A stretch of DNA of 64,000 bases. It comes from an uncultured Acidobacteriota bacterium (lineage in GTDB: Bacteria > Acidobacteriota > Terriglobia > Acidiferrales > UBA7541). Location of the stretch: contig CAVZTQ010000002.1 in assembly GCA_963778235.1 (NCBI GenBank), positions 39,766-103,765 of the forward strand, written 5' to 3'. Positions 3,825-55,917 of the stretch are shown here, in pieces (the stretch's first letter is position 1; the number at the start of each line of letters is the position of its first letter). Made by a program: the position numbers and the translations under genes. The notes below the pieces were generated by a model. That model did no database searches. It was not told where the DNA came from and saw only the letters and a list, made by a program, of their open reading frames with translations.

Positions 3825-3837
3825 AGTTTTCGATTTC

Positions 3838-3870
3838 GTAGGGGCCACCTTCAGGTGGGCCGCTGTTTTT
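3838..3870 (+). terminator. REP-like element, class II (GTAG + GGCCACC-TTCA-GGTGGGCC hairpin + TGTTTTT); terminator-like
   Basis: GTAGGGGCCACCTTCAGGTGGGCCGCTGTTTTT lies 14 nt after the ADOP1 stop. The SD AGGAGGG and the ADOP2 ATG follow directly. It is part of a 59-nt block identical to 6615-6673. Confidence 0.65.
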
Positions 3871-3884
3871 AGGAGGGAACAGCA

Positions 3885-6566: not shown

Positions 6567-6573
6567 TTGGTTG

Positions 6574-6600
6574 GTAGGGTGGGTCTGCGACCCGCCCGCT
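6574..6600 (+). repeat. REP-like element, class I variant
   Basis: GTAGGGTGGGTCTGCGACCCGCCCGCT lies 8 nt after the ADOP2 stop. Same hairpin architecture as 670-700 with substitutions. Confidence 0.65.
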
Positions 6601-6619
6601 GTTCGATTCGCCGAATTTC

Positions 6620-6652
6620 GTAGGGGCCACCTTCAGGTGGGCCGCTGTTTTT
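6620..6652 (+). terminator. REP-like element, class II; terminator-like
   Basis: Sequence is identical to 3838-3870. It is the second of two tandem REP-like elements in the ADOP2-ADOP3 spacer. Confidence 0.65.
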
Positions 6653-6666
6653 AGGAGGGAACAGCA

Positions 6667-9300
6667 ATGCGCAGAATCCTGACCACACTTCGCAATCTCA
6701 TCCGCCGCGAACATGTCGAGCGCGATCTCGACGCCGAAGTCCGCAGCTATTCCGATCTCCTCGAAGAAGAAAAAATGTCCAACGGCATGAACGCAAACGA
6801 GGCAAAGCGCGCCGCACGTATGACTATCGGCGGCCCGGAGCAACTCAAAGAAGAAATCCGCAGCGCTCGCACCGGATCATGGCTCGAAACTCTTTGGCAA
6901 GACTTACGTTTCAGTTTCCGTACACTGCGAAAGAAACCAGCGTTCACCGCAATCGCCGTCTTGTCGCTCGCGTTGGGAATGGGAGCAGCCACGGCAATTT
7001 TTACGCTTGTTGATCGCGTTCTCCTGCAGCCTCTTCCATATCAAAACTCCGCCCAACTCGTTTGGATGACGGAGCAAACCACCGCCAACGATTCCACCGG
7101 CGTTTCTTGGCCGAATTATCAAGACTGGAAACAGATGAATCGCGCATTCACGGGAATGGCGGGATATCGTGACGCCGGATTTCCAGTTGCCGAAGAAGGA
7201 TTTTCAGGACTCGCCTCCGGCCGTTACGTCACCGCGAATTATTTCGAGCTAATGGGAATCCGCCCGCTGCTCGGCCGCACATTTCAAGCAGGAGAAAATA
7301 CTCCCGGCGGACCGCAACTCGCAATTTTGAGTCACCAGTACTGGCGCAGCCGCTATGCGGAATCTCCCGATGTTTTAGGGAGGGTGATTCGTCTTCGCGG
7401 CGCATCATTCACCATCATCGGAGTTATGCCCGAAGGTTTCGGCGCCGTCACTCACACCTCGTTCTGGTTGCCGTTTGAGCAGAATGTTCCCAAGCTTTAT
7501 CTCACCGGACGCGACGTCGCCTGGCTTTTGTACATTGTCGCCCGGCGCGCTCCCGGCGTTTCGTTTGAACAAGCGCAGCGCGACATGGCTCGCGTGGGCG
7601 ATCTTCTCGCGCAACAATATCCTTCGATTGATTCCAATTCACGTCCCATGATGAAAGATTTAGATCGCCACATGCTCGGCGATAACCGCGCCGTTCTAAT
7701 TCTCGTTTCGTCCGCCGTGAGCTTGCTGCTTTTAATTACTCTTGCAAACATCGCGAGTCTTCTACTCGTGAAAACGAGTGCTCGCAGAAAGGAATTCTCG
7801 CTACGCCTCGCGCTTGGCGCGCGTCGAACCAGAGTTTTCCGCCAGATCCTCACCGAAGGATTTCTCCTCGCTTCCATCGGCGGATTCTTCGGATTCCTGA
7901 TTGCCTGGGCCGCAGTGCGCGTCGCTGCGGACGTGCTTCCCAGAAATCTTCCGCTCACAGCGTCGTTGGGAGTCGACCTCCACGCCTTCGCATTCTGTTT
8001 CGGGGTCACCATGCTCACCAGTTTGATCGTTGGATGCGCGCCCGCTCGTTTTGCAATGCGCTCCGATCCTCAAACTGTATTGCGCGCTACTTCCCATCAA
8101 ATTCGCGGAGGCCACAAACGTTTTCACGGCGGGCTTATCGTCTGCGAAATTGGTTTGGCGATGGCTGTTCTTGTCGGCACCGGGCTGCTCGTTCGCACCA
8201 TGCGCTCGTTACTCTCAACCGATCTCGGATTCGATCCCAATCATTTGGTCACTGCGACAGTTTCAATTCCCCCGGCGCCTTATCCAGACGGCCCCGCCCA
8301 GGCCGCATTCATTCAGCGCGGAATCGACCGAATCGCCACAATTCCTGGTGTAACGTCCGCGTCGGCCGTTTTTCCCGTTCCATTTTCTCCGCAAATTTAT
8401 CAAGTGCTGCTGGCCATCGAAGGACGCATCCCGAAAGTCGGAGTCGAGCAAAGCACTTTCGTTTCCGTCGTGTCGTGGAAATATTTGGACACGATGAAAA
8501 TTCCAATTCTCCAAGGCCGCGGATTTGTCGAGCAGGATACACAACCGAACATCCGCTCCGTTGTAATCGATCGCGGCCTTGCGGAAAGTTATTTCCGCAA
8601 CGAAAATCCCATCGGAAAATCCATCAAGCTATTCACGCAGAATTTTGCAGACGCTTCGCAGACTTCGTATGTCGTTGTAGGAGTTTCGGGCGCCGTGCGC
8701 GCCGCAAGCCTCGACGAAATTCCGCCGCCGCGCGTTTACGTTTTGATGCAGCAGTTGCCGACCGCGTGGACATTCGTCGTGCGCTCCGCCGCCGCGCCGC
8801 AATCCGTCGAACGCGCCATTCAAGACCAACTCCGTACACTTGATCGCAACGTTCCCGTTTTCAATGTCGCTACCATGAATGAATCAATTGGCGCGTCGCA
8901 GAAATCCAGAACGCAGGCCATGTGGCTCCTGATTTCTTTTTCCATCGCTGCGTTACTCCTCGCCGCGCTCGGTCTTTACGGAGTCATGTCCTATCTTGTC
9001 GGGCAGCGCACCAACGAAATCGGAATTCGCATGGCGCTCGGCGCGCATCCGCGTGACATTCGCAAATTAATTTTCGGCTACGGCGCAGCACTCGTCGCCG
9101 GTGGTGCCGTAGTTGGACTAGCATCAGCTCTAATTCTCGGCAGGCTCATGCGCACATTGCTCTACCGCGTCGAGCCCACTGACGGCATCACAATCGCTGT
9201 CGTGACCGCCGTCATCGTCGCCGTCGCATGGATTGCCTGTTACGTCCCAGCGCGTCGCGCCATGAAAGTAGATCCAATGGTCGCCCTTCGATACGAGTAG
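6667..9300 (+). CDS. ADOP-family duplicated permease (copy 3)
   Basis: 877 aa. [41 protein letters not shown]...[13 protein letters not shown]-terminal [10 protein letters not shown]. Confidence 0.9.
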   Translation: MRRILTTLRNLIRREHVERDLDAEVRSYSDLLEEEKMSNGMNANEAKRAARMTIGGPEQLKEEIRSARTGSWLETLWQDLRFSFRTLRKKPAFTAIAVLSLALGMGAATAIFTLVDRVLLQPLPYQNSAQLVWMTEQTTANDSTGVSWPNYQDWKQMNRAFTGMAGYRDAGFPVAEEGFSGLASGRYVTANYFELMGIRPLLGRTFQAGENTPGGPQLAILSHQYWRSRYAESPDVLGRVIRLRGASFTIIGVMPEGFGAVTHTSFWLPFEQNVPKLYLTGRDVAWLLYIVARRAPGVSFEQAQRDMARVGDLLAQQYPSIDSNSRPMMKDLDRHMLGDNRAVLILVSSAVSLLLLITLANIASLLLVKTSARRKEFSLRLALGARRTRVFRQILTEGFLLASIGGFFGFLIAWAAVRVAADVLPRNLPLTASLGVDLHAFAFCFGVTMLTSLIVGCAPARFAMRSDPQTVLRATSHQIRGGHKRFHGGLIVCEIGLAMAVLVGTGLLVRTMRSLLSTDLGFDPNHLVTATVSIPPAPYPDGPAQAAFIQRGIDRIATIPGVTSASAVFPVPFSPQIYQVLLAIEGRIPKVGVEQSTFVSVVSWKYLDTMKIPILQGRGFVEQDTQPNIRSVVIDRGLAESYFRNENPIGKSIKLFTQNFADASQTSYVVVGVSGAVRAASLDEIPPPRVYVLMQQLPTAWTFVVRSAAAPQSVERAIQDQLRTLDRNVPVFNVATMNESIGASQKSRTQAMWLLISFSIAALLLAALGLYGVMSYLVGQRTNEIGIRMALGAHPRDIRKLIFGYGAALVAGGAVVGLASALILGRLMRTLLYRVEPTDGITIAVVTAVIVAVAWIACYVPARRAMKVDPMVALRYE

Positions 9301-9423
9301 CGATGCGTAGACATGGTCGATGAACCGGCCGCTGTACGATTGGCGAGAATGTTGTAGGGGCAATCTTTTTAGCAGGAAGACGCTCGAAGGTCAGGTCGCT
9401 CAAGATTTTTGCGAGGAATAAAA

Positions 9424-12054
9424 ATGCGCAGAATCATCACAACAATTCGCAATCTTCTCCATCGCAAAAATATCGAGCGCGATCTCGACGCCGAAGTCCG
9501 TAGCTACGCCGATCTTCTTCAGGAGGAAAAGATGTCTAGTGGCATGAATGCCGACGAAGCAAAACGCGACGCGCGTATGAATATCGGTGGTCCCGAACAA
9601 CTCAAAGAAGAAATTCGCAGCGGTCGCGCCGGAGCGTGGATCGAAACACTTTGGCAGGACGTGCGTTACGCCGCGCGCCTTCTTCGCAAAAATCCAGGCT
9701 TCACCGCAGTCGCTATTCTCACTCTCGCCCTTGGCATTGGCGCTAACACCGCTGTGTTCAGCGTGGTGAACGCCGTTGTGCTCCGTCCTCTGCCTTACAA
9801 GGATTCTTCGCGTCTCGTGGAGATCACCACGTCCACCGCGATGTTTCCGCAATTTTCCCTCGGTAATTCGTGGGTGGCTTATGAACAGATGCACAAGAAC
9901 GTATCTGCATTTGAGGAACTGACGGCGTATCGCTCATCCAGAATGACTTTGACTGCCTCCGGTGATCCCGCGCGACTTTCCTCCGCTCGTGTTAGCGATG
10001 GATTTTTTGAACTGTTTGGCGTTGCGCCACAGCTGGGGCGATTGCTCGTTCCATCGGACCAATCAGAAAATCAGGGACTTGTGGTTGTTCTGAGCGACGG
10101 GTTTTGGCGCAGCCATTACGGTGGCGATTCAGGCATCGTCGGCCGCACAATCAGGCTGAACAATCAGGAACACGTCGTCCTGGGCGTCGCTTCGCGTGGA
10201 TTCGACTATCCATCTCGCGCCGATGTTTGGGTGCCCCTGATTCTGGCTGACGACGAACGCACAAACGTCACCTCGTTCAATAATCAGATTGTTGCAAAAC
10301 TGCGTCGCGGCGTATCTGTTGATCAGGCTCGGACGCAACTAGCCGTCATCGCGCAGGACATCATCAACGCAAATCCTGCGCTTAAGGAAGGATATTCTCT
10401 GCGCGTCGCGACGATGTTAGATCGCAGAGTCGGCAACATTCGTTCGACATATCTGATGTTATTTGGCGCAGCAGGATTTGTTCTTCTGATTGCGTGTGCC
10501 AATCTGGCGAGCTTATTGCTTGCTCGTGGATGGGGAAGGCAACGAGAAATGGCGATGCGGGCGGCGCTTGGCGCGTCGCGTGGCAGAATTATTCGGCAGG
10601 CGCTGGTGGAAAGCTGTCTTCTTGGATTATTGGGCGGCGTCGCTGGTGCGTTTCTGGCTTCCATTGGAATTGACGCGTTTCGGCAAATTGCTCCGGCAGG
10701 AACGCCGCGTCTCTCGGAAATCTCCGCTGATTCCACAATGTTCTGGTTCGCACTGGGAAGTTCACTCGTCGCGGGAATTCTGTTTGGACTTGCACCCGCG
10801 TTGCGCGCCTCTCGTTCCGATCCAAACTTCGTGTTGAACCGCGGAAGTATTTCCGGAGCGAGCGGAACGCGTCAACCACGCCTGCGAAATGTGCTCGTGA
10901 TCGCCGAAGTCGCTCTCGCATTCATGCTTCTGATTGGCGCCGTGTTGACGATGCAAGGGCTTGCGCAGTTGCTGAAGACTGACACCGGAATGAGAACAGA
11001 TCATCTGCTCACATTTGATCTTCCATTGTCGCAAAGACCGGGCGCAAACGTTGACGCTCTGCATGCAAAGATCCAAGACATTGTCGGGCGAGTTCACGCA
11101 TTGCCCGGAGTTTTGGATGTTACCGCAACGGATCACAGTGTTTTGAGCGGCAACATAAATATAATGTCGGGATTCACTGTCGAGGGGATCCAAGCTCATT
11201 CACAGGCAGAGCGCAGCGCGCAAGTTCGGTACGTTTCGCCTTCTTACTTTCAAATGCTGGGCGTTCATCTGATTCGTGGAAGATTTTTTACCGATCACGA
11301 TCTCCCTAATTCCGAAAAAGTTGGAATCGTGAACGAAGCAATGGCGCAGAAAATTTGGGGCACAGTGGACGTCGTTGGAAAGCGATTCAATACCGGACCG
11401 AGCAACGACAAGGACTGGATCGCTGTTGCGGGTGTTGTCGCCAACGTTCGTGAAGCCGGACTTGGAAACAAACCGGAACCGGAATTCTATTTTCCGATCC
11501 TTCAGGGCGGACCGAACTCCGTGCATATGATTGTTCGTACCGCGCAAGATCCCGGCGCGCTCGCGTCCACCGTTTCGCGGCAGGTTTGGATGGTCGATAA
11601 AGATCAACCCATCAGCAACGTCGAGACGATGGATCAACTCATCAAAGAACAGACTGGCAATTCCAGAATGCAAACTGCGCTGCTGAACTTTTTTGGTGCA
11701 ATCGGACTTGGCCTTGCGCTGCTTGGCGTTTATGGCGTTGTTGCGTATTCCGTTTCGCGGCGGACGCGCGAAATTGGAATACGCATGGCGCTCGGTGCAA
11801 ATCCGCTCAGCGTGCTGCGCATGGTGATTCGACAGGGACTAATTTTGTCGCTAGTCGGCGTGGCGATTGGAACGGCCGGAGCAGTCGCGCTGAAACAGGT
11901 TTTGCAAAATAATTTTACCGTCGCCAACACGAATGACGTCACAACATATGTTGTTGCGGGCGTGCTTGTGATCGTCGTTGCGTGCTTAGCGTGCTACGTT
12001 CCGGCGCGCAGAGCGATGCGCGTTGATCCGATGGTCGCTCTGCGCCACGAATAA
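9424..12054 (+). CDS. ADOP-family duplicated permease (copy 4)
   Basis: The track ORF starts at TTG 9409. I prefer ATG 9424 ([28 protein letters not shown]) because it aligns with the paralog N-termini and has GAGGA upstream. C-terminal [10 protein letters not shown]. Confidence 0.88.
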
Positions 12055-12065
12055 TTTTTATCGAT

Positions 12066-14996
12066 TTATCGATCGGCGTTTTTGCGCCCGGCATTCAGAT
12101 TGTCAAAATTTAGAATCGTATTCAGCACCAGCGAATAATTTCCTACCGTCTCGCCGCGATACATCGGATTCGTCGAAAAAAGAATTATATGTCCGCTGCC
12201 TTCCGGCGAATCGACGACCGCCGGATGCTCGGCAATTTCATTTCCATTTTCCACGAGGCCCGACACGAGCAGATCGCGGGTCTCTGAATATCGGAAAATT
12301 ACGCGCGGTCGCAGCGCTGGAGGAATTAGTCCAACATTATTTCGCATTTGTTCTTCGGTGACCGGCGCGGCCTCCCAAGTTTGAACTGTGGGACGTTCGG
12401 GAATTGTGATCGGCTGGCGGCCCGGCGTTGAATCCAAATCCGTAGCGGTGCCGCGTCCTGTCGGACGCGCGGCTCCGGCGCCACCACGACCTCCACCACC
12501 TCCGCCTCCGCCACGACCTCCTCGTCCGGCAACATTGCTTACGCCGAAGACGAGGCCTTCATTGCAATATGCGGAAAGCGTGTCGCCGTATCCGTACGCG
12601 ATAGGACTTGCGCCGTCCACAATGCGCGTTTTCACTACGCTGCCGACGATGCGTTCGCGCTGACCTTGTGAAACGGAAACTCCATCGAGCATTCCGAAGG
12701 TGGCCGCGAAATTCGCGGTGTCCGCAACGGTCACCAGCACTCCGCCTTTGCGGACGAACGCTTGCAAATGTTCCAGCCCATCCCAGCCGAGGCCGGGCCG
12801 CGTGTCGTCAGTTTGATCGTCGCCAGAAACAACCAGGTTCGGAGTGAGCGGCGTATTTTTCCACGGCAGCGGATTGCCCGCGTCCGTGTATGCGCCTTTT
12901 ATGATGCTGGTGGGATTGCCGCCTCCGCCGGTTGGCGGGAATAAGATCACGTCATACTTCGCGTTCAGATTCGGTGTGCGCGAAACGGTTTGCGTGCTGA
13001 TGTAGTCGTAAGGAATTTTCAAACCGTCCAGCGCTTCACGCCACCAGCCTTCGGTCTGCGTGCTTTGCCACGTGTGCAGCAAGGCGACACGCGCGGCTCG
13101 CAGCGGATGTGTTTTCACTTCGGACGGAATTGAATCAATTCCATAGCCGCGAATTCCGAGTTCCGTTAGGGCGCTTTGCAAATCGGATCCGCTGACACCG
13201 CGCACCAGCAAACTTCCACGATTAAATTTGCGTCCACCGGCTTCAAAGGAATCTTCAGCAGATTGAATATCTGCGTTCTTGAATCGATAACGCAAAGTTG
13301 CCAGCGCAGGATCGGCGTTGTGATTGATGGCGATAATTGTTCCGGTGCCGGTAACTCCGCCGGGTGCGCGAACGTTGGTAACTTTTTCAACCGGCGCGTC
13401 CAAAACTTTCACGTCGGCGACGCGAACGACTTGCACGTTGAAAAGTTCGCCGAACGTCCAGCCGGTATCGTCGTACGGAGTTCGCTGCGGATCATCGGGC
13501 GCCCAATATTGATAATCGAGCAGGGAATCAGCGATTCGCGAATAGGGTTGATCCATGCGGATGATGTAACTGCCCGCTGGAAACTCTTTTGTGATTGTCG
13601 CGGGACGCGCTTCGCGATTTCCGCGGCCGCTTGCTCCGCCAGCGTTTGCCTGATCGCCTTCTGCGCCGCCATTATTTTGTCCGGCAGCACCTGTGCCGCG
13701 GCCTGCACCTTGTCCGCGCGCGGGAGCTGGCATCGTGACGCTAAATGCCGCGGTAGCGCGGGAAATTTCCACGCGCTGCTTCATCATCACGCGGAGCAAA
13801 TCGGCCTGACTCCCGAGACGCGGATCGTCTCCGGGCAAAACATATGCGGACGGACCTTCCTGCGAGGGCTTTTGAATGGAGCGTTTTGCCTTCAAATAAA
13901 AATTCTTCAGGAAAAATTTGCGGCTGTCGCCGAAATAGTGGAGCGCCGTGAGCAATCCGGTTTCTTCGTAATTATTATTGTCGCGCTGCGACCACAACGT
14001 GCGCGGCATTGGAGGATCCTGGCGATACCAGGTGCGGTCATATTCATTCGGAGTGAGCGTGCGAACCAAAGTATCCGCGCCGCCATTTCCGAAAGTTTCG
14101 TAAAGGCGGCTGATGCCGTTGTGCATCGCGGCGATGAACATTAAATATCCGGGCGACCAGGTATCAAAAGTTCCGTGAGTGAAAACTCCGGGCATGCCCA
14201 TCTTGGTCATGTCCGCAACGTTTCGCCAGCCAAGCATTTCCCATTCGTTGGTGAGAATTGGATCAACCCAGGCGTTGAACGGGCCGTCGCCGGCGGTGTT
14301 GTCATAAAGGTAGGGAACTGATTCGTGCAAGTCGTGCAAAACCTGTGCGTCCCAATCGACAAAAGTGTTCAGAACATTTTCGGTGAGCTTCAGCGTGACA
14401 CCCATCGCGTCGCGATTGTTATCGTGCGCGACGTATTTGCCCCAATAAATTAGTCCCGGCCAATTATCTTTCGGATGCGCGAGATGCCAGTTGTAGAGAT
14501 CGACCATTCTGTCGCGTCCATCGACTTCCACGATGGGAGTGATGAGCGTAATGACGCGTTCGCGAATTTCTTTGATGTAGGGGCTTTCGTCAACAGCGAT
14601 GCGATAAGCCAATTCCATTAGCGCCGTGGGCGCGCCGGTTTCGGTGGAATGAATTGTGCCGGTGATGTAATAAACGGGAACGACTTGATCGACAATTTTA
14701 TCGGCTTCGTCGTCATTGAATTTTATTGTGCGCGGATCAGCCAACTTCGCGAGCTTCGCGCGATTTTCGTCCAGGTGCTTCAGATTTTCTTCGGAAGAAA
14801 TTGCGACGGCGAGCATGTCGCGGCCTTCTTCAGTTTTTCCGATGCGGAAAACTTTCACGCGAGGGCTGGCGGCGGCCAGCATGTCCATATATTTGTAAAC
14901 GTCCTTGGAGTAGGGAAGAATTCCGGGCGCGCCGGCGATGTCTCCGAGAACTTCTTTTGGAGTAGGCACGGTTTTTGACGCGGGCAAGTAGTCCAC
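12066..14996 (-). CDS. Large M14-family zinc carboxypeptidase-like protein; its 5' region is interrupted by a 25-nt REP-like element (see findings)
   Basis: HxxE zinc motif in VYYITGTIHSTETGAPTAL. It is 976 aa from the first canonical in-frame start (GTG 14996). The frame stays open upstream to 15227 and encodes a signal peptide (LPLLTLVFITTIFSASALRAQS), but there is no ATG/GTG/TTG in that stretch. Two Gly/Arg-rich low-complexity inserts. Confidence 0.8.
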   Translation of the reverse strand: MDYLPASKTVPTPKEVLGDIAGAPGILPYSKDVYKYMDMLAAASPRVKVFRIGKTEEGRDMLAVAISSEENLKHLDENRAKLAKLADPRTIKFNDDEADKIVDQVVPVYYITGTIHSTETGAPTALMELAYRIAVDESPYIKEIRERVITLITPIVEVDGRDRMVDLYNWHLAHPKDNWPGLIYWGKYVAHDNNRDAMGVTLKLTENVLNTFVDWDAQVLHDLHESVPYLYDNTAGDGPFNAWVDPILTNEWEMLGWRNVADMTKMGMPGVFTHGTFDTWSPGYLMFIAAMHNGISRLYETFGNGGADTLVRTLTPNEYDRTWYRQDPPMPRTLWSQRDNNNYEETGLLTALHYFGDSRKFFLKNFYLKAKRSIQKPSQEGPSAYVLPGDDPRLGSQADLLRVMMKQRVEISRATAAFSVTMPAPARGQGAGRGTGAAGQNNGGAEGDQANAGGASGRGNREARPATITKEFPAGSYIIRMDQPYSRIADSLLDYQYWAPDDPQRTPYDDTGWTFGELFNVQVVRVADVKVLDAPVEKVTNVRAPGGVTGTGTIIAINHNADPALATLRYRFKNADIQSAEDSFEAGGRKFNRGSLLVRGVSGSDLQSALTELGIRGYGIDSIPSEVKTHPLRAARVALLHTWQSTQTEGWWREALDGLKIPYDYISTQTVSRTPNLNAKYDVILFPPTGGGGNPTSIIKGAYTDAGNPLPWKNTPLTPNLVVSGDDQTDDTRPGLGWDGLEHLQAFVRKGGVLVTVADTANFAATFGMLDGVSVSQGQRERIVGSVVKTRIVDGASPIAYGYGDTLSAYCNEGLVFGVSNVAGRGGRGGGGGGGGRGGAGAARPTGRGTATDLDSTPGRQPITIPERPTVQTWEAAPVTEEQMRNNVGLIPPALRPRVIFRYSETRDLLVSGLVENGNEIAEHPAVVDSPEGSGHIILFSTNPMYRGETVGNYSLVLNTILNFDNLNAGRKNADR

Positions 14997-15227
14997 CAGC
15001 GAGGAACCGAAATAAGTTTCGGTGGTGTATTCCTTGATTTTGGCGGTGTACGCGGCATCGACGGCGACTTTGGGATCGCGGACTGGAGCGGTTTCGTTGG
15101 ACTGGGCGCGAAGTGCGCTTGCGGAAAAGATTGTTGTTATGAAGACAAGGGTGAGAAGCGGGAGATTCGAATTTTCCAGCGAACGGATGGATAGCCTTTT
15201 GGGCGATTTGTTGCGATTGCGAATCTG

Positions 15228-15252
15228 GCACCGACAGGAGTGTCGGTGCTAC
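15228..15252 (-). repeat. REP-like element, class III (GTAG + GCACCGACA-loop-TGTCGGTGC), located inside the 5' end of the M14 gene
   Basis: The minus strand reads GTAGCACCGACACTCCTGTCGGTGC. It matches the copies at 32297-32321 and 55719-55743 except in the hairpin loop (CTCC, CTCT) and, at 55719, one stem-closing base (T->C). It starts after codon 6 of the ORF that opens at ATG 15270. Confidence 0.8.
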
Positions 15253-15430
15253 TGAATTCGTGCGCTTCATCGAATCCCTCGATTCATAAAATAAACTGTT
15301 CGCGGTGGCGGATAATTGCGCCGAAGTGCGAGTAGCGTTTATATCGTTACGGCCGCGGCATGTAAAGGCCGGGCCAATTCCAAATCGGAACTGACATCGG
15401 CTGCTCCGTCGTTCGCGCACTCCACGTGCG

Positions 15431-15902: not shown

Positions 15903-16550
15903 ATGCGTCTGCTAGCGACGATGTTAGCTCTCGTAGGACTGGTGGCGGATTCAACGGGAAGCCGGATTGCAGGGAATCCTTTCCGAGCGAGCGAAGAGAA
16001 GCCCCAGGTTAGCGATGAAACACTCACGTCTGAGCAGGTAGCGGTCTACAGAGAGGTTCTGCAAGCCTACGTCGGTAAATCTGAAGGCGCGCTGAATCTG
16101 GCGGACACCACATAGGTTCTCGATTTCGCTGGCGTTTTCGGTGTGGACGGTCGGTGTTTGCAAGGGATCAAGCTCGATCCCGTGGTCAGTTCGACGGAAA
16201 CAGTTCACCGCCTTTCATCCGCTGTTCCCCTAAGTCCGAAGATGAAGTTGGTCAACGCAGATGAGCAGGAAAAGAAGATTGAGATGAACGATCCACAAAT
16301 CGTCATGAAGAGCGCGATCGATGAACACGCAGAGGTCACGGATAAGCAGCTAGAAGATTCAATCAAGCGAGCTTTTGAGACGGGACTGTTCAGCTTTTCA
16401 GAGATTCGTTTTGATAAGCAACACCGGAACGCCGTCGTGCAGTATGGATTCGCATGTGGAAGGCTGTGCGGTAACGGAAACACGTTGTTGCTCAAGAAAT
16501 CCGGAAATAAATGGAAGATTCGGAAGAGATGTGGCGGGTGGGTTTCTTAG
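15903..16550 (+). pseudogene. Secreted hypothetical protein gene with one in-frame TAG (16113-16115)
   Basis: SD GGGAGGGA lies 6-7 nt before ATG 15903, and the N-terminus is signal-like (MRLLATMLALVGLVA). Track ORFs 15738-16115 and 16143-16550 share one frame and are separated only by the TAG. The downstream half has no SD of its own. Confidence 0.45.
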
Positions 16551-16602
16551 AGCGCATGGGAGTTCAAACTTTCCGCACGTGACATTGGTATGAGGGATTC
16601 CT

Positions 16603-16914
16603 TTACTTGTTGTGCGGGCCGCCGAACCATGACGCGAGTTGGACTGCCATGAGTACGCCGCCGGCTGCGACGAGCAGAATGTCGATGGTGTTGCGCATGT
16701 CGAAGTCACCGACGCGGAAAATTAGCAGATAGGCGATTGCAAAATTAAATGCGCCCTACAGGACGTTGACGACTGGAGAGGAGAGACCTTTGCCGGGAGG
16801 TGATGCGAATGGACTGGGGAATGGACGACCGGTGACTCCGCTTACGAAATGAGGAATCGCGTTGACCAGGAATGCGCCTGCGAAGAAGTAGGCGATGTAG
16901 GTGTACCACTGCAT
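16603..16914 (-). pseudogene. Small membrane protein gene with one in-frame TAG (16756-16758)
   Basis: SD GGAGG lies 5 nt before ATG 16914. It reads MQWYTYIAYFFAGAFLVNAIPHFVSG...SSPVVNVL*GAFNFAIAYLLIF...VLMAVQLASWFGGPHNK, with stop TAA at 16603-16605. Both halves are below 60 aa, so neither appears in the ORF track. Confidence 0.55.
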
Positions 16915-17158: not shown

Positions 17159-18391
17159 ATGTGCTCTCTTAGGTTTACGCAGCGAATTAGTTTCCGGCAA
17201 GTGACTTCTTTGATTCTGCTATGCGCGCTACTTAGCGGATGCGGTTCCGGTTTGAAGTTAGTGGGCGGCAATCCTGTTGTGCCTCCTTCGACGATGCTGA
17301 CGTTCGCACTGCCGGTTCTGCTCGGCACGAACGGATCGAATCCGGCGTCCATCGCGATTGCTGATTTTAATGGCGACGGAAAACTGGATATCGCTGTCTC
17401 AAACTTTTTTTCAAACACCATCTCGATTTTCATCAACAGGGGTACCGGAATATTTAATAGTCCAATTTTGGTGCCCGTGACTATTACGGACAGCATTGGC
17501 GCGATTGCCGTCGGCGATTTTAATGAAGACGGGAAACCTGATCTCGTGGTGGGAACAATTTCTGGGCCGCAAGCGGATATCGTGCTGCTGAACACGGGCA
17601 ACGGGACGTTTGCCCAGCAGGCGCCAATTCCAAACTCGTTCGGCTTTTTTCAAGCGGTTGCCGTGGATTTGAATGGCGATGGACATTTGGATTTGGTCCG
17701 CTGCGGCAACGCGTTCGTGTCCGTTTCATTGGGGAAGGGCGATGGCACGTTCAGCGCCAGTGTGGATTTGACGCTCAGTCCCAACACCGCCGGCCCGGTG
17801 CAGGGGCTGGTCGTGAAGGATTTCAACGGAGACGGAAAACTGGATGTTGTGGCCGTGCAACCTACGACAGTGGTTGGCAACAACTTTACTCAGGGAAATC
17901 TGTTATTTTTCGCCGGCAATGGTGACGGGACTTTCAAGATCGGCACGTCAACGCCCTTAGGACTCGGTGAGTTAGTTTCGATCGTCGCCGGAGATTTTAG
18001 TGGCGATGGAAAACAAGACGTGGTGGTCGGAACGGCAGTCTCAGCGTTGCTTCTGCCCGGAAATGGCGATGGGACATTCGGCAAATCAGTGCTGGTGGTG
18101 AATCCTTCGGGAAGCACCGCGACAAATTTCGTGGAACTTGCAACCGCCGACTTCGATGTGGACGGCAAACCAGACGTTATTGCGACCAACTCTGGAAGCG
18201 GAACAGAAACGTTAGTTCTGAATAACGCGCTGGGAGTTTTTCCGCCGCCTGCAAATACATCGTACACATTCAATCTGATCGCCGGAGTTGCCGCAATTGC
18301 AGTGGGAGATTTTAGCGGAGATGGGCTGCCGGATTTCGTCACCGTCAATAACGTGACGAATCAAATCTCGATAATTCTTTCGCAGAAATAG
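17159..18391 (+). CDS. FG-GAP/VCBS-repeat lipoprotein (7 repeats, probable beta-propeller)
   Basis: Lipobox LLSGC. Seven DFNGDGKLD-type repeats: DFNGDGKLDIAV, GDFNEDGKPDLVV, VDLNGDGHLDLV, KDFNGDGKLDVV, GDFSGDGKQDVVV, ADFDVDGKPDVI, GDFSGDGLPDFV. Confidence 0.85.
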   Translation: MCSLRFTQRISFRQVTSLILLCALLSGCGSGLKLVGGNPVVPPSTMLTFALPVLLGTNGSNPASIAIADFNGDGKLDIAVSNFFSNTISIFINRGTGIFNSPILVPVTITDSIGAIAVGDFNEDGKPDLVVGTISGPQADIVLLNTGNGTFAQQAPIPNSFGFFQAVAVDLNGDGHLDLVRCGNAFVSVSLGKGDGTFSASVDLTLSPNTAGPVQGLVVKDFNGDGKLDVVAVQPTTVVGNNFTQGNLLFFAGNGDGTFKIGTSTPLGLGELVSIVAGDFSGDGKQDVVVGTAVSALLLPGNGDGTFGKSVLVVNPSGSTATNFVELATADFDVDGKPDVIATNSGSGTETLVLNNALGVFPPPANTSYTFNLIAGVAAIAVGDFSGDGLPDFVTVNNVTNQISIILSQK

Positions 18392-18471
18392 AACGGGAGA
18401 ATTGGGAGTCAGGATCCGTACACGTGAGGTCGATGTGTGAGGGACCCGATTCGGCGAACCCGGGCTACAAT

Positions 18472-19452
18472 TCATTTTCCAGATTTTTTCGCGTAATAGC
18501 CTTTGCGCGCGAAGATTTTGTATTTCTTGCCGGTTAGTTCCAGCTTCAATTGTCTGTATTTTCCGTCGGGGTCGCTGTTCGTAGGGTAATAGCCGATGGA
18601 ATATTCGGTGCGAAGCTCGTCAGAAATTTGATCGAAAGCTTTCTGAAGGCGCGACTGGTTCGCGACGTCAATCGCGCGGCCTCCGGTATCTTCGGTAAGG
18701 TGTTTTGCTGCGTCGAAATCCGCGTAATCCTTCTTGCCATAGACGACCAGCAACTGGACGAGGGTGTCGGCGCGTTGCGCGGCCTCAACTGCCTGCTTGA
18801 TGGTGATGTAACTGCCCTGATCGCTTGCGTCGGTGAGGATGATGAGCGCTTTGCGTCCTGCTTCGCCCGCCATTTTCTTCAAGCATGCGGTATAGATCGT
18901 GTCGTACAAACGCGTGCCGCCTTGATACGGAGAATACTGGCCGGGCCTGAGATGATTGGCGCCGCCCATCCCGATATCGGCTCGCCGAACGCTGCGATCG
19001 AGAGCCGCAAAGTCGCTCGTCCAATTGGAAAGCATCACGGCATCAGCATCGAATGCAACCACGAACGCTTTATCGCCTTCCTGAAGCACCCGGTGAAGGA
19101 ATTGAGTGGCGGCCATCTGTTCAGCGCCAATCATGTCTTGTTCACTGCCGCTGGTGTCAATCAATAGTCCAAGGGAAAGCGGCATAGTTTTTTCGTGCGA
19201 GAAGAACGCAATTTTTTGTTCGATTTTATCTTCAAAAATTCTGAAATCCGATTGATCGAGATTCGGCACGTTGACGTTATGTTTGTCGACGACCGTGGCG
19301 TAAATATTTACCAGCGGCACTCCGATGCGAATGGCGTCATCTTGCGGGGCCGCGGGAATGGCGGAAGCCGTGGCGCGACGGGCGGGGGTGCCAAGCAAAG
19401 TGGCGGATACGATAGCTAAGACAATCAACGCCGGCGTAGAACGGATTTGCAT
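18472..19452 (-). CDS. VWFA-related acidobacterial-domain protein (secreted VWA protein)
   Basis: Start moved to ATG 19452 (MQIRSTPALIVLAIVSATLLG signal peptide). N-terminal module IRIGVPLVNIYATVVDKHNVNVPNLDQSDFRIFEDKIEQKIAFFSHE is followed by a VWA fold with MIDAS-like LLIDTSGS. Confidence 0.8.
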   Translation of the reverse strand: MQIRSTPALIVLAIVSATLLGTPARRATASAIPAAPQDDAIRIGVPLVNIYATVVDKHNVNVPNLDQSDFRIFEDKIEQKIAFFSHEKTMPLSLGLLIDTSGSEQDMIGAEQMAATQFLHRVLQEGDKAFVVAFDADAVMLSNWTSDFAALDRSVRRADIGMGGANHLRPGQYSPYQGGTRLYDTIYTACLKKMAGEAGRKALIILTDASDQGSYITIKQAVEAAQRADTLVQLLVVYGKKDYADFDAAKHLTEDTGGRAIDVANQSRLQKAFDQISDELRTEYSIGYYPTNSDPDGKYRQLKLELTGKKYKIFARKGYYAKKSGK

Positions 19453-19616
19453 GGTTTTGGTTAGATGAAACTCCGTCGCTATTGGGGGCGGCCGAGTGAA
19501 AAATACGATCTGTGTTCGAGGGTACATTATTTTTGAGAAAGAAAACAATACGGAATAATGACAGGAAGGTGAAAGTTGCCGAGGGCGGAGAGTGAAGGCC
19601 GCCGCTCGAATGATCG

Positions 19617-19682
19617 ACAGGAATAAAAACAACAAGGCGAGCCTTGCACGAGAGTGGAGGCTCGTGCCGGCTCGCCTTGTTG
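19617..19682 (-). terminator. Rho-independent terminator of the TPR gene
   Basis: A perfect 14-bp outer stem (CAACAAGGCGAGCC 19630-19643 / GGCTCGCCTTGTTG 19669-19682) encloses a 7-bp inner stem (GCACGAG/CTCGTGC). On the minus strand TTTTTATT follows. It lies about 40 nt after the TPR stop. Confidence 0.75.
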
Positions 19683-19723
19683 GTACAGAAACCCTCAGGG
19701 GGAAAGTTGGGCTACAGTTTTTG

Positions 19724-20215
19724 TTAGCGAACGGTTTCGGCGACGGCCGGACCGGTGTGGCCTTCGATTACTTTCAGCGTGCGATGCCGCCATATCCCGA
19801 GGCTGCGATTCAAGAAATGACTGCGATGCAGAAACGGCAGCACTGGCTGACGCCGACTGGAGAGTTGATTCAGCATTCGGTAGATGCGTCCGTCACGTTG
19901 CGCATATTTGGTGGCCATCAAGAGAGTTTCGACGGCATCTTGTTTACGTCCTGCGGAGACGTAAACTTCCGCGAGATTCAGATAGAGTTGAGGTTGGTCG
20001 CGCTTACCCTTCAGCGCGGCGTTACAAAGTTCTTCGGCTTCGTCCCACTTCTGGTGTGCGCGGGCGAGGGTGAGTCCGAGATAGGAACGGTAAAAAGGAT
20101 TTTCTTCTTCGAGTTCACTGGCACGGCGAATATGTGACAGAGCTTTTTCGGAATAATCATCGCGCAAGTATCCAAGTGCTTTTCGGAACTCGGCGAATGC
20201 TTCTGTGTCGATCAT
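19724..20215 (-). CDS. Tetratricopeptide-repeat protein
   Basis: 163 aa. TPR-like helices (ALSHIRRASELEEENPFYRSYLGLTLARAHQKWDEAEELCNAALK...PQLYLNLAEVYVSAGRKQDAVETL). Confidence 0.75.
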   Translation of the reverse strand: MIDTEAFAEFRKALGYLRDDYSEKALSHIRRASELEEENPFYRSYLGLTLARAHQKWDEAEELCNAALKGKRDQPQLYLNLAEVYVSAGRKQDAVETLLMATKYAQRDGRIYRMLNQLSSRRQPVLPFLHRSHFLNRSLGIWRHRTLKVIEGHTGPAVAETVR

Positions 20216-20585
20216 GATGCCTCCGCGGGAATTGGAAGCTAGGGCGAGTACCGGCCGGAACCCGCCCCCAAAACTTACAGCGACAGTGAAAGCATTTTAT
20301 TTTGCGGGAGCCCCAAAAACTACTGGACGCGTGTACAGTCTTGGGACAGTCGAAAATGTGGGAAAAGTATTTCCACTATTTTGCATGCAGAAAAATCAAG
20401 CCGGGATTGACTTGTTTGATGGGGCAACGTAGAAGGGGTGGGCGGATTATGCATATGGGCAGGAGGAAATTGAGCGCGCAATTTGCGGCGCGTAATTGGT
20501 GGAATTGGGATAGTTTGCGCAGAGAGGCCTCGGGGCTTATGAGACGCCCCAAGCTACACGAACGGTTTTTTGCCGAGGTGACAGG

Positions 20586-23500
20586 ATGAGTTTTGTGGCT
20601 GAGAAAATTACGCGGGGATTTTGGCGTATTTGCGCGTGCGCAATGATATTCGCGGTGGTGGCTGGGGCGGCGATGGCGCAGCAGACGAACTCACTCGAAA
20701 CGCGAATTGCGGCGATCATGGAGCGGCCGGAATTTAAATATACAAGTTTCGGGATTGAGTTTTATTCGCTGGATAAGGGCAAGGCGATTTACAAGCTGGA
20801 TGCTGGGAAGCTTTTCACGCCGGGTTCCACTACGAAATTGCTGACGGAAGGTACTGCGCTGGCTTTGTTGGGCGCGGATTATCGATTTCACACGAAGGTG
20901 TATCGGACGGGACTGATTGATGCGGATGGCACGTTGAAGGGCGATTTGATTTTGGTGGCCAGCGGCGACCCGAATTTGAGTGGGCGGATTCAGTCTGACG
21001 GCACGATGGGATATACCAACGAGGACCACTCGTATGCAGGGAGTCCCGACACGAAGGCGGTGCCGGGCGATCCGCTGATGGTGATTCGCGAACTGGCGGC
21101 GCAGGTGGCGGCGCGCGGAGTGAAGCGCGTTGAAGGACATGTGATTGTGGACGCGTCATTATTCCGCGAAGGCGCGCGCGAGCTGGGAACCGGCGCGGTG
21201 ATTTCGCCGATCTCGGTGAATGACAATTGTGTGGACATCACCGTGGCGCCGGGCGAGAAGGTCGGCGATGCGGTTGCCGTGACAGTTTCTCCGCAGACGA
21301 GCTATGTGCGATTTCTGGTGCGCATGAATACCGGTGACAAAGATACGCAGCCGATGATGCGTTACAACTCGGACGATACGGACGCCGAAGGGAAGCACAC
21401 CGTAATTCTGGCCGGCAGTGTGCCGCTGGGCGGGCCGCCAATTTTGTGGACGTACAAAGTGCCGGAGCCCAGCCGGTTTGCGGAAATTGCTTTTGTGGAG
21501 GCGTTGAAGGAAAAGGGAGTTGCGGCGGAGCTTCGTTCAGCGACGACGAAGCCGGATTTCGCGGCGGTTGCTCCTCAATATAAGGATGATGCCATTGTGG
21601 CGGAGCACGTGTCGCCACCGCTTTCTGAAGAAATAAAAGTTACGTTGAAAGTGAGCCAGAATTTGCATGCCAGCATGACACCTTCGATTGTTGGTGCGCT
21701 GGTCGTGCCGTCGCTGACGGGGAACGCATCCGAACAGGCTGGTTTCGACAAGGAAAACAAATTCTTAACGAAGGCGGGACTGGATTTAGGCGGCGCTTCG
21801 CAGGGCGACGGAGCTGGCGGCGCGCAGTCGGCATATTTCACGCCGGAATTTATGGTGTCGTATCTCACGTACTGGTCGAAGCGTCCGGACTTCAAGATTT
21901 TTTACGACGCACTGCCGATTCTGGGGCGCGACGGAACGCTGTGGAATATCCAGCCGGATTCGCCGGCGGCTGGGAGCGTTCACGCGAAGACGGGAACGTT
22001 CAGCGCCGGTAATGCGCTTACAAAAACTTTGATGGTCACGGGCAAGGGTCTTGCAGGATATATGACGACCGCCAGCGGTGAGCATTTGGCGTTCGCGATT
22101 TATGCGAATCATGTGACGGTGCCGAGAGATTTGCCGGATGCTGCGTCGAAAATTGTTGGTCAGGCGCTGGGTGAAATTGCCGCGGCGGCATATGACGGGC
22201 GTTCAACCGCCCCGACCAAAGAAGTAGCTTCACCGCAGGCACCATCCGCCGAATACGATATTTTGATTCGCAACGGGCACATCGTGGATGGCAGCGGAAA
22301 TCCGTGGTACGCGGGGGATGTTGCGATAAGCGGAAATCGTATTGTGAAGATTGGGAATCTGAAGGATGCACACGCGAAGCGGGTGATTGACGCGAAGGGA
22401 ATGGCCGTCGCGCCGGGATTTATCGACATGCTCGGCCAATCGGAAACCTCTTTGCTGATTGACAGCCGCTCTCTGAGCAAGCTTTCGCAGGGAATTACTT
22501 CCGAAATTACAGGCGAGGGTGGAAGCATCGCGCCACAGGACGCATTAACGCTCGAGCCGCTGAAGCCCTTCCTGGATCACTACAAGCTGATGGTCGATTG
22601 GACGGATTTGGACGGATATTTCCGCCGATTGGAAAAATCGGGCACGCCGATTAATTTCGGAACATATGTCGGCGCGGCGCAAGTCCGCGAAGCTGTGCTG
22701 GGCGACGCTGACCGTGCGCCGACGGCGGATGAACTCGCGAAAATGAAAGCGCTTGTCGCGACGGCGATGCAACAAGGCGCGATGGGAGTTTCTACCGCGC
22801 TGATTTATCCTCCGGGACATTTTGCAAAAACGGACGAGCTGATCGCACTCGCGAGCGTGGCGGGAACTTACGGCGGAATCTACGCGTCGCATATGCGCAG
22901 CGAGGGCCGCGCGCAAATGGCGGCGCTCGACGAAGCAATTCGCATCGGCCGTGAAGCGAGACTTCCCGTCGAGATATTTCATCTGAAAGTTGCGGGCAAG
23001 GATCGCTGGGGACAAATGCCGCTGGTCGTGAAGAAAATTGAAGCCGCGCGGCAGTCCGGCATCGATATCGCGGCGGACATGTATCCCTATTTGGCCGGTG
23101 CGACGGCACTCTCTTCGGCACTGCCTCCGTGGGTTGCAGCGGGCGGGCCGGCGAAGGAAATCGAGCGACTGCACGATCCGAAAATGCGCGCTCGAATTAA
23201 ATTGGAAATGGCGGTAAGTCACGCGGACTGGGAAAATTTATATTTGGCGTCAGGCGGCGCGGGAGGAGTGATGATCGCGTCGGTTTTCAGTCCGGAGCTG
23301 AAGAAATACGAAGGCAAAACGGTTGCGGAAATGGCGGCATCCGAACACAAGACACCGATTGACGCGCTGATGGATTTTGTAATTGAGGATAATTTACAGA
23401 CCGGCGCACTTTATTTTATTGCCAGCGAACCGGACCTTCGTACCGGCCTTTCGCAATCGTGGACGAGCATCGGTCTGGACGCGAATGAGGAGTCGCTCGA

Positions 23501-23873
23501 CGGACCACTATTCAATCCGCACGACCATCCGCGAACGTGGGGCGCGATGCCGCGATTTCTGGGCCACTATTCGCGTGATTTGAAAATGATGCCGATGGAG
23601 CAGGCGGTACGGAAAATTACTACGCTGCCTGCTGAGCGCGAGCATCTAACCGAGCGCGGAATGTTGAGGGCGGGATATTTTGCGGACATCACAATTTTCG
23701 ATCCGGAGAAAATTATCGATCACGCGACGTACACGAAACCCGGCCAGCTTTCCGATGGCGTGGCTTTCGTGCTGGTGAATGGGCAGGTTGCGTTTGAGGC
23801 GGGGAAAATTACCGGCGTGACAGCGGGCGTTCCGTTGCGCGGGCCGGGATGGAAGGCTGGATCGTCGAATTAG
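20586..23873 (+). CDS. Fusion protein: N-terminal PBP4-type D-Ala-D-Ala carboxypeptidase/endopeptidase (peptidase S13), C-terminal N-acyl-D-amino-acid deacylase (D-aminoacylase, amidohydrolase fold)
   Basis: Signal peptide. S13 motifs: STTK (20826-20837), GDLILVASGDPNLSG, HAKTGT (KTG at 21987-21995). Linker STAPTKEVASPQAPSAE. From about 22251: YDILIRNGHIVDGSGNPWYAGDVAISGNRIVKIGNL...VAPGFIDMLGQSE...YASHMRSEG...EIFHLKVAG...ADMYPY, typical of the D-aminoacylase family. Confidence 0.85.
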   Translation: MSFVAEKITRGFWRICACAMIFAVVAGAAMAQQTNSLETRIAAIMERPEFKYTSFGIEFYSLDKGKAIYKLDAGKLFTPGSTTKLLTEGTALALLGADYRFHTKVYRTGLIDADGTLKGDLILVASGDPNLSGRIQSDGTMGYTNEDHSYAGSPDTKAVPGDPLMVIRELAAQVAARGVKRVEGHVIVDASLFREGARELGTGAVISPISVNDNCVDITVAPGEKVGDAVAVTVSPQTSYVRFLVRMNTGDKDTQPMMRYNSDDTDAEGKHTVILAGSVPLGGPPILWTYKVPEPSRFAEIAFVEALKEKGVAAELRSATTKPDFAAVAPQYKDDAIVAEHVSPPLSEEIKVTLKVSQNLHASMTPSIVGALVVPSLTGNASEQAGFDKENKFLTKAGLDLGGASQGDGAGGAQSAYFTPEFMVSYLTYWSKRPDFKIFYDALPILGRDGTLWNIQPDSPAAGSVHAKTGTFSAGNALTKTLMVTGKGLAGYMTTASGEHLAFAIYANHVTVPRDLPDAASKIVGQALGEIAAAAYDGRSTAPTKEVASPQAPSAEYDILIRNGHIVDGSGNPWYAGDVAISGNRIVKIGNLKDAHAKRVIDAKGMAVAPGFIDMLGQSETSLLIDSRSLSKLSQGITSEITGEGGSIAPQDALTLEPLKPFLDHYKLMVDWTDLDGYFRRLEKSGTPINFGTYVGAAQVREAVLGDADRAPTADELAKMKALVATAMQQGAMGVSTALIYPPGHFAKTDELIALASVAGTYGGIYASHMRSEGRAQMAALDEAIRIGREARLPVEIFHLKVAGKDRWGQMPLVVKKIEAARQSGIDIAADMYPYLAGATALSSALPPWVAAGGPAKEIERLHDPKMRARIKLEMAVSHADWENLYLASGGAGGVMIASVFSPELKKYEGKTVAEMAASEHKTPIDALMDFVIEDNLQTGALYFIASEPDLRTGLSQSWTSIGLDANEESLDGPLFNPHDHPRTWGAMPRFLGHYSRDLKMMPMEQAVRKITTLPAEREHLTERGMLRAGYFADITIFDPEKIIDHATYTKPGQLSDGVAFVLVNGQVAFEAGKITGVTAGVPLRGPGWKAGSSN

Positions 23874-23897
23874 TATGTTTCGGCGGAAAGATAACGA

Positions 23898-23919
23898 GCC
23901 GGCAGGATGCCGGCGCTAC
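23898..23919 (-). repeat. REP-like element, class IV (GTAG + GCCGGCA-TCC-TGCCGGC hairpin)
   Basis: The minus strand reads TTTCGTAGCGCCGGCATCCTGCCGGC. It lies 25 nt after the stop of the PBP4 fusion gene. Confidence 0.6.
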
Positions 23920-23957
23920 GAAACTTGGCGCGCTAAGAGGAATTGGAGATCGCTGAA

Positions 23958-32296: not shown

Positions 32297-32321
32297 GTAG
32301 CACCGACACTCTTGTCGGTGC
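32297..32321 (+). repeat. REP-like element, class III
   Basis: GTAGCACCGACACTCTTGTCGGTGC is flanked on both sides by the identical heptamer AGATTTC (32290-32296 and 32322-32328). Confidence 0.8.
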
Positions 32322-32422
32322 AGATTTCCGACCGCCTACACAAGTCCACCAACAACAAAAATTGGGAAAAATTATTCGGAGGTTCGGTTTGCGTGGCACA
32401 GCCATTCCTGGCTGTGTTGTCT

Positions 32423-55718: not shown

Positions 55719-55743
55719 AGTAGCACCGACACTCTCGTCGGTG
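55719..55743 (+). repeat. REP-like element, class III
   Basis: GTAGCACCGACACTCTCGTCGGTGC lies 21 nt after the cupin stop. Confidence 0.75.
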
Positions 55744-55917
55744 CAAGTCAGTTCAAGCCACCAATGTGTCCGTGCTGCACAGACCTCCAGCAAACTGCGC
55801 ACCTGCCCGTACATCACCAATAACGATTGACCGTGTCTTTCCCGTCATCCCGACCAGCAAATCCATAGCTTCGCCGTCACCAACTCCGCAAAATAAAAAC
55901 CGGAGGCAGCCACATCC

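Follow-up and report, generated by a model that had tools for sequence, protein, structure and literature searches.

The M14 zinc carboxypeptidase gene on the minus strand of the window, by which we mean the whole 64,000-nt stretch of Acidobacteriota DNA analyzed here, carries in its signal-peptide region a 25-nt GTAG-type REP hairpin that forms the leading edge of a lineage-specific and apparently translated insert, and the break between its start codon and its peptidase reading frame appears to stem from one extra base located downstream of the hairpin. We assign a probability of roughly 80% to this combination of a translated, REP-edged insert and one extra base in the window. According to this explanation, a segment of about 100 nt with a REP at its 5′ end would have entered the M14 gene right after codon 6 in the ancestor of one Acidiferrales/Acidoferrales subclade, landing between the MKR n-terminus and the signal-peptide hydrophobic core with the reading frame kept by chance. 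The segment would have been translated ever since as a long n-region, with its peptide loosely constrained and its frame and hairpin maintained, and the gene in the window would share this architecture, with the addition of one base at about 15183-15186 that alone breaks the frame.

Reading along the minus strand, the gene is preceded by a conserved, promoter-like block (15338..15366), composed of TTTACA (15366-15361), a 17-nt spacer and TATAAA (15343-15338), which is unchanged from CTTTAC to AACGATATAAACGCTACTCGCA across short and long orthologues and constitutes a putative promoter; a consensus promoter scan did not call this block, the -10 hexamer of which ends in A. A Shine-Dalgarno-like (SD) GAGGGA (15275..15280), kept in all orthologues, short and long, lies 4 nt 5′ of the conserved ATG start (15268..15270; MKR...), which opens MKRTNS in the window. 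The hairpin, GTAGCACCGACACTCCTGTCGGTGC, occupies positions 15228..15252 of the same strand and consists of a GTAG head (15252-15249) and a 9-bp stem formed by the arms GCACCGACA (15249-15241) and TGTCGGTGC (15236-15228), closed by a CTCC loop (15240-15237). Its translation in the ATG frame is VAPTLLSV. From CAG 15227 onward the M14 frame is open; it has an in-frame TAG at 15251-15249 and contains no ATG, GTG or TTG upstream of its first canonical start, GTG 14996. The GAGGGA, the ATG, the hairpin, the in-frame TAG and the lack of a start before GTG 14996 had all been listed in the earlier note, and all are present. The signal-peptide hydrophobic core and predicted cleavage region (15105..15158) translate as LLTLVFITTIFSASALRA followed by QS and align to the h-region and cleavage motif of all orthologues, with the predicted cleavage site falling between A-x-A and QS. 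The coding region for the mature M14 zinc carboxypeptidase (Pfam PF00246), stop codon included, spans 12066..15104, and its product shows no further lesion and 95% identity to its nearest relative (P0121), at about 85% nucleotide identity. On its plus strand, the window also contains a paralogous family of seven ORFs, each about 845-893 aa long (1170-12054, 32745-35282, 50220-52754, 57117-59771). Four of them stand in tandem beside the M14 gene, where relatives carry two to four, and duplicated MacB_PCD/FtsX permeases are the orthologues of the ORF at 9409-12054.

When the M14 frame was used as a protein query, thousands of M14 peptidases were retrieved, the closest of them from Acidiferrales/Acidoferrales-type Acidobacteriota, and these closest orthologues display two kinds of N-terminus. 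Short forms have an ordinary signal peptide (e.g., MKRIISGLVFGIIVFSASAATAQS), while long forms open with MKRTNSVAPT..., MTRTNLVAPTLPSVPVSQSQRIAPK..., MKRKNLVAQTFLSVRCSQSQ... or MTRTNLVAQPILAVR... A single ATG/SD block begins both the short forms (MKRIISGLVF..., MKRTVSSLLF...) and the long forms (MKRTNSVAPT...), which bears out the earlier reading of the MKRTNS ATG as the start and shows it to be conserved. The long-form N-termini, gathered from cluster members and metagenome contigs, amount to about 20 distinct alleles (86-95% protein identity) with the hairpin at the same site. These alleles read the hairpin in the ATG frame, as V-A-(P/Q)-(T/P)-x-L-(S/A)-V, and none is interrupted over the 57-66 residues that separate the conserved ATG from the AQS cleavage motif. 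The ATG frame of the window reads MKRTNSVAPTLLSVPDSQSQQIAQKAIH, and its homology to the SVPVSQSQRIAPKA and SVPVPQAKLIAQEPNH of its relatives indicates that the reading frame of the gene runs on past the hairpin. From the conservation of the frame in about 20 alleles, we infer that the insert is translated. The NCBI annotation of two related proteins (P0124 and P0154) starts at an internal codon giving MCALIL..., revealing that at least one annotation pipeline favors a downstream start.

The short forms share the promoter-like block, the SD and the ATG and lack the insert, and the alignment gap that they define opens exactly at GTAG, right after codon 6, which places the REP at the 5′ edge of an insertion about 100 nt long. 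In the window, this lineage-specific insert occupies the signal-peptide n-region at positions 15153..15252 of the minus strand, its 3′ border being approximate. The earlier note had placed the element inside a coding sequence, and it does lie there, as part of an insertion present in some orthologues and absent from others, with the frame kept except in the window. The remainder of the insert is homologous among long forms, which have the motifs SQSQ and ANH-S-R in common, and blastn-short detected no second copy of these 75-85 nt, either within the window or across the roughly 1 Mb of DNA fetched; the insert as a whole does not behave as a member of a repeat family, only the 25-nt REP being recurrent. 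Derivation of the insert from a REPIN doublet through decay, or from other DNA by copying, was considered and set aside, given that the insert contains no second inverted REP and yields no blastn-short match. In a neighbor-joining tree of the mature regions the long forms group together, with one short form (P0004) nested among them, a placement that points to presence/absence polymorphism or recombination at this site.

The position of the frame break follows from a DNA alignment of long forms (L001-L005, L129-L133) and short forms (L006-L008). In the seven long-form loci measured, the distance from the ATG to the conserved CARTCMARCGAAACC (the QSNET codons) is 165, 171, 171, 171, 174, 174 and 186 nt, in every case a multiple of three, and it amounts to 66 and 84 nt in short forms. 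The equivalent distance in the window, from the ATG to CAGTCCAACGAA, is 166 nt, or 1 mod 3. One of the long-form loci (L130) has a hairpin identical to that of the window, an intact frame and a span of 165 nt, exactly one base shorter. All five long-form relatives aligned across the break show a one-column gap opposite the CCGT at 15186-15183 of the window. Homology to these relatives is maintained in the ATG frame through CAT 15189-15187 (ATC CAT vs. AAC CAC) and in the M14 frame from TCG 15182 onward (TCG CTG GAA AAT TCG AAT CTC vs. TCG CGC AAA AAA TTG AAT CTC). As placed by this alignment, the lesion is most readily described as one extra base, unique to the window, within the CCGT at 15183..15186 (minus strand). 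It lies about 45 nt 3′ of a REP that would not itself break the frame, and it switches the ATG frame to that of M14.

The earlier note had instead proposed that a 25-nt REP transposed into an intact gene reading MKRTNS-QIRNRN..., and that precise excision of the element would restore the frame. The arithmetic behind this proposal is correct, since deletion of the 25 nt joins 6 and 1053 codons into an open ORF, and REPs are thought to be mobile; however, the deletion mends the frame only because 25 = 3n+1, and a deletion of any 3n+1 length falling between the ATG and about 15185 would do so, a one-in-three coincidence for an element of arbitrary length. None of the orthologues lacks exactly 25 nt, and the short forms lack about 100 nt instead. 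The hairpin does not interrupt the gene in the long forms either, all of which retain it and read through it in the ATG frame, and in L130 the very hairpin of the window coexists with an intact frame. Moreover, the reading MKRTNSQIRNRN predicted for orthologues without the 25 nt occurs in none of the approximately 20 long forms, and the n-region reconstructed in the earlier note, QIRNRNKSPKRL, is in the wrong frame: orthologues read positions 15227-15187 in the ATG frame, as ...SVPDSQSQQIAQKAIH, and the codons that follow the REP (SQSQ..IA..) are homologous in this frame and not in that of QIRNRN. Transposition of a 25-nt REP into an intact gene is hence very improbable. That the REP region is non-coding in every lineage, with translation starting near the h-region and the hairpin acting as a control element in the 5′ leader, is also unlikely, if less starkly so. 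The documented caution regarding N-terminal REPs (PMC3733652), the annotation of P0124 and P0154 from MCALIL... and the presence of TTG or GTG codons near the h-region in some alleles would all fit a leader of this kind, but it would have to coexist with a frame that is open across about 20 divergent alleles in which all length changes are multiples of three. If these changes represent some six independent indels, the probability that all of them preserved the frame by chance is about (1/3)^6. The ATG/SD of the long forms is furthermore identical to that of the short forms, no downstream start is conserved across alleles, and those present would yield leaders devoid of a charged n-region. A programmed +1 ribosomal shift or hop near the hairpin, producing full-length peptidase, could draw on a stable hairpin upstream of the shift site and on an ATG frame that stays open, but the discontinuity is unique to the window and every relative measured is in frame. 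Positions 15183-15189 offer no slippery or stop-codon context, no Rfam match was obtained, and the region has neither matching take-off and landing codons nor a stop after the take-off codon, unlike T4 gene 60, all of which makes recoding scarcely credible. As regards other RNA-level signals, a known RNA family or an intrinsic terminator was discarded, with no Rfam match and no terminator-like site.

The translated insert with one extra base leaves the origin of that base to be weighed, and the remaining genes of the window are informative in this regard. Comparison with syntenic loci (L003 and L132) and Pfam analysis revealed four further genes with a single lesion in the 64-kb window, for a total of five. 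A PadR regulator gene on the plus strand (790-1200), which precedes the first MacB/FtsX permease, carries a +1 insertion at about 1083 (CACCGGGCCGCC vs. CACCGGA-CGCC in L003), and its last 27 residues are 93-100% identical to those of orthologues in the shifted frame. The gene for a 215-aa protein divergent from the M14 gene (15903-16550, plus strand) contains a TAG at 16113-16115, reading ADTT-stop-VLDF where L132 has a Tyr (ADTTYILDL), and a small membrane-protein gene of about 125 aa (16597-16914, minus strand) contains a TAG at 16758-16756, reading VNVL-stop-GAFNF where orthologues have a Trp (VNVLWGIFNF). Lastly, a GCV_T-family (aminomethyltransferase-like) gene on the minus strand (36908-38112) is divided near 37500 into two overlapping ORFs in different frames, one matching positions 1-150 of Pfam GCV_T and the other positions 206-253 together with GCV_T_C, in what looks on these Pfam matches like a frameshift near 37500. 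None of the five genes shows secondary decay. Recoding of TAG was examined for the two in-frame TAGs and rejected, because TAG, an ordinary stop in the source genome, terminates 9 of the 34 confident ORFs and the residues at the two sites are not the same in orthologues (W at one, Y at the other). In a separate MAG, the peptidase gene of a member of the P0001 cluster (P0122, on a 570-kb contig) yields a 180-aa fragment that goes out of frame in a GGRGGGGGGG tract, which indicates that assembly-type frameshifts in the M14 peptidase gene do occur in public MAGs.

A consensus or assembly error is, on balance, the favored origin for the extra base, given the occurrence of five one-hit genes in 64 kb without secondary decay and the 95% identity of the mature peptidase to its nearest relative. 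The pattern of isolated single lesions, affecting well-conserved genes several times per 64 kb and leaving no secondary decay, resembles that of consensus-error frameshifts in draft or long-read MAGs. It departs from indel-type MAG errors in that TAG-creating substitutions make up two of the five lesions; these are not explained by random indel-type errors and are hard to attribute to random substitution error, which lends some credit to the possibility that the extra base is real. In that event, which we consider appreciably less probable, the gene would be a very recent pseudogene or be expressed weakly from a non-canonical start, such as ATC 15188, with an AAGG 6 nt upstream, or CTG 15179; this alternative differs from the explanation put forward here in its last step only. 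It also gains from the fact that the assembly is not grossly inaccurate, a Logan contig of run ERR10755946, from an independent assembly of the same strain, being 100% identical to the window over 6.5 kb (17941-24496; 6,556 nt), although this contig covers none of the lesions and hence decides nothing between error and mutation. Exact-product look-ups of the 976-aa ORF, the FG-GAP protein and the permease retrieved no second assembly across the extra-base site. Furthermore, the repaired n-region of the window (…KAIH-x-SLENSNLPLL) lacks the K/R that relatives show just before the h-region, which could be a hint of relaxed constraint. On the other hand, errors fit the five single-lesion genes better than does a natural spread of pseudogene ages, and 95% identity of the mature peptidase at about 85% nucleotide identity speaks of strong purifying selection. 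No aligned relative is frameshifted at this site, nor does any of them conserve ATC or CTG as a start, so that the non-canonical initiation suggested in the earlier note, needed only if the extra base is real, finds no backing among relatives.

The hairpin at the head of the insert has been conserved in a manner that differs from that of the sequence around it. Three types of stem are seen among long forms (CCGACA/TGTCGG, CAGACA/TGTCTG and CAGCCA/TGGCTG), with zero or one stem mismatch in all eight DNA sequences. Over the 18 stem positions, the eight DNA alleles differ at 0-5 sites, and, with the exception of the loop-closing pair, all differences are compensatory (C-G to A-T, A-T to C-G); the other 78 columns of the insert show 27-60% divergence between lineages. 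The hairpin also emerges from RNAalifold, with two compensatory pairs and a share of paired cells of 96.8%, against 33-46% in slid controls. The compensatory changes alter the encoded peptide (APT..SVP, AQT..SVR, AQP..AVR), and a stem kept by compensatory pairs while its peptide changes indicates a constraint acting on the nucleic acid rather than on the protein. The stem could be upheld by REP/RAYT-type recognition or homogenization, or else by mRNA structure. Across the protein tree the stem types form a mosaic, two members of a single 90% cluster (P0131 and P0002) differing in stem type, and this mosaic may with equal likelihood have been generated by allelic recombination or conversion or by repeated double mutation. 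It is conceivable, though rather doubtful, that the hairpin, located in the first 45 nt of the coding sequence, constitutes a selected cis-element rather than a tolerated passenger, providing an mRNA or DNA structure that tunes initiation, stability or RAYT-dependent processing of the secreted peptidase, or taking part in a RAYT-linked homogenization with the REPs of the genome. If true, such a role would explain why the stem switches among three genome-wide REP types only through compensatory pairs within a diverging leader. A long-range helix sequestering the SD is not claimed here. In the RNAalifold prediction, GAGGGAUUCRAU forms a helix with the 3′ end of the insert in which 88% of cells are paired and one pair is compensatory, but predicted SD pairing probabilities overlap between long (0.58-1.0) and short forms (0.48-0.68), and the CU-rich partner of the SD may simply reflect Leu/Ser codons. 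Two long-form alleles (P0003, at L002 2381-2426, and the P0127 N-terminus) have a hairpin loop that is longer by 21 nt and stays in frame (VAPTREPALSCEGSVPV and VTPTLLPVLSNEGSVPV), which suggests an insertion nested in the element or a right arm duplicated in part.

The window contains three copies of the REP at no more than two mismatches, against none expected from shuffles, and one related variant. The second copy (32297..32321, plus strand; one mismatch) is intergenic and is followed head-to-tail by the variant, GTGG-CACAGCCA-TTCC-TGGCTGTG (32393..32416, plus strand), which belongs to the CAGCCA type. The third copy (55720..55744, plus strand; two mismatches) is also intergenic and lies 22 nt past the stop of a cupin-domain ORF ending at 55698. 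The copy in the apparently translated 5′ end of the M14 gene thus departs from the extragenic location of the other two. The repeat displays the defining trait of these elements, that is, a terminal GTAG (or GTRG) adjoining a palindrome of 20-40 nt with a 6-9 bp stem. A second class of palindromes, GGCGGGTC-CGC-GACCCGCC, headed by GTAG or GTGG, is found on the plus strand at 670-693 and 46539-46563, just 3′ of the stops of a rubrerythrin and an iron-dependent repressor gene, and probably corresponds to the other REP classes of the earlier note.

When one genome per GTDB species was scanned with a degenerate pattern, at least 120 loci containing the repeat (L009-L128) were identified, and the matches listed come mostly from the Acidobacteriota. 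Among them, single MAGs of Planctomycetota, Chloroflexota, Thermoanaerobaculia, Verrucomicrobiia and Ignavibacteria contribute several loci each, whereas single matches have to be read against the roughly 70 chance matches expected in a collection of 596 billion bases and against possible bin contamination. In the 139 instances compared among the matches listed, conservation is restricted to the 25 nt, with an invariant head and stem, and the flanks show only a weak TTCA on the 5′ side and a weak T-rich signal on the 3′ side. The loop, left unspecified in the pattern, is nonetheless conserved as CTCC, CTCT or TTCC in these instances. The commonest stems among the matches listed are CAGCCA/TGGCTG, the top variant in other genomes, and CAGACA/TGTCTG, with the CCGACA/TGTCGG of the window being rare, and inverted REP doublets 75-129 nt apart also occur among them. 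Such near identity of a 25-nt REP, loop included, across several phyla represents an unusual breadth for a REP family. About 10 of 140 instances among the matches listed lie deep within ORFs of at least 250 codons. In L048, for instance, a REP copy (6039-6063, minus strand) is found in frame within a type I restriction R-subunit gene (ORF 5306-7990), where it contributes ..SSTATPGCAPS.. to the linker that joins Helicase_C and EcoEI_R_C.

The 64-kb window itself contains no RAYT gene. In other genomes with the same repeat, however, a Y1_Tnp (PF01797) ORF adjoins the repeats in six fetched loci (L024, L048, L097, L116, L122 and L125), the ORFs of the first two having been identified with Pfam and those of the other four through a search for an N-terminal motif and H-x-H. 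All six putative RAYTs carry the signature RNLPHW...HxH...NPV(K/T)AG, and the ORF is clearly bracketed by two repeats in L024 only. The RAYTs of L024 and L048 share only 34% identity. The assignment of the 25-mer as a REP rests on its GTAG head, 9-bp stem and loop, its three copies in the window, the existence of doublets and the adjoining PF01797 ORFs, and, judging from these sequence features, it is a genuine GTAG-headed REP of the kind acted on by RAYTs, which are Y1/HUH transposases; in this respect, the earlier description of a REP-like element stands.

GTAG-tagged REPs and their associated RAYT (TnpA-REP) transposases have been characterized in a number of bacterial groups (Nunvar et al., 2010, PMC2817692; Bertels and Rainey, 2011, PMC3116915; Di Nocera et al., 2013, PMC3733652). 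The surveys of GTAG elements consulted here covered the Proteobacteria, Cyanobacteria, Chloroflexi and the PVC group, with the Acidobacteria credited with TIR-flanked transposases and not with REPs (Di Nocera et al., 2013, PMC3733652). The family described here resembles GTAG REPs in its 25-nt unit with a 5′ GTAG (at times GTGG), its 9-bp GC-rich stem, short loop and recurrence within the window and in related MAGs, as well as in its mostly intergenic location, often just past stop codons, its inverted doublets 75-129 nt apart and its PF01797 neighbors. It departs from the surveyed REPs in that nearly one and the same 25-mer is found in several phyla, yet two of its RAYTs are as divergent as indicated above. 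A literature search by repeat sequence returned no relevant match. REPs of the GTAG and CGTC kinds lying wholly inside ORFs, many of them at N-termini, were reported in several species together with the caution that most N-terminal REPs may in fact be extragenic as a result of misannotated starts (Di Nocera et al., 2013, PMC3733652). In the case of the M14 gene, this caution is answered by a frame conserved in about 20 alleles and by an ATG/SD common to the short forms.

Palindromic elements that enter coding sequences have a second point of comparison in the Rickettsia palindromic elements (RPEs), which reportedly, in work by Ogata and colleagues from 2000, were found inserted in frame in protein-coding genes. 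Some intragenic repeats have been equated with RPEs in the REP literature (PMC3733652). The element in the M14 gene is similar to intragenic REPs and RPEs in being a palindromic repeat within an ORF that appears intact in relatives and in contributing a short peptide to a tolerant region, here the n-region of a signal peptide, and close orthologues likewise differ in its presence. Unlike in RPEs, the repeat unit is confined to the leading 25 nt of the approximately 100-nt insert, the remainder of which belongs to no detectable repeat family. The persistence of the hairpin at an orthologous coding site, with compensatory changes in its stem, is not documented in the published surveys consulted here (PMC3733652). 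Intragenic GTAG REPs, including N-terminal ones, are hence already described as of 2013, and the additions made here are modest, consisting of a covarying hairpin kept at an orthologous coding site, its location in the n-region of a signal peptide and the finding that a nearly identical REP accompanies RAYTs in the Acidobacteriota and other phyla.

For annotation purposes, the gene is best recorded either as encoding an intact M14 peptidase whose signal peptide is long or as carrying a one-base frameshift, and not as a gene disrupted by a REP, and the window should be regarded as carrying several single-base lesions. If the frameshift were genuine, the M14 gene would be dead or weakly expressed from a non-AUG codon. 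Current views of REPs stand, and the case is largely an ordinary one. At the same time, it offers a clean and comparatively dated example of a REP that appears to have been captured into a coding region and long translated, with its hairpin kept by covariation, and it documents a GTAG REP/RAYT family in the Acidobacteriota, with almost the same 25-mer in other phyla.
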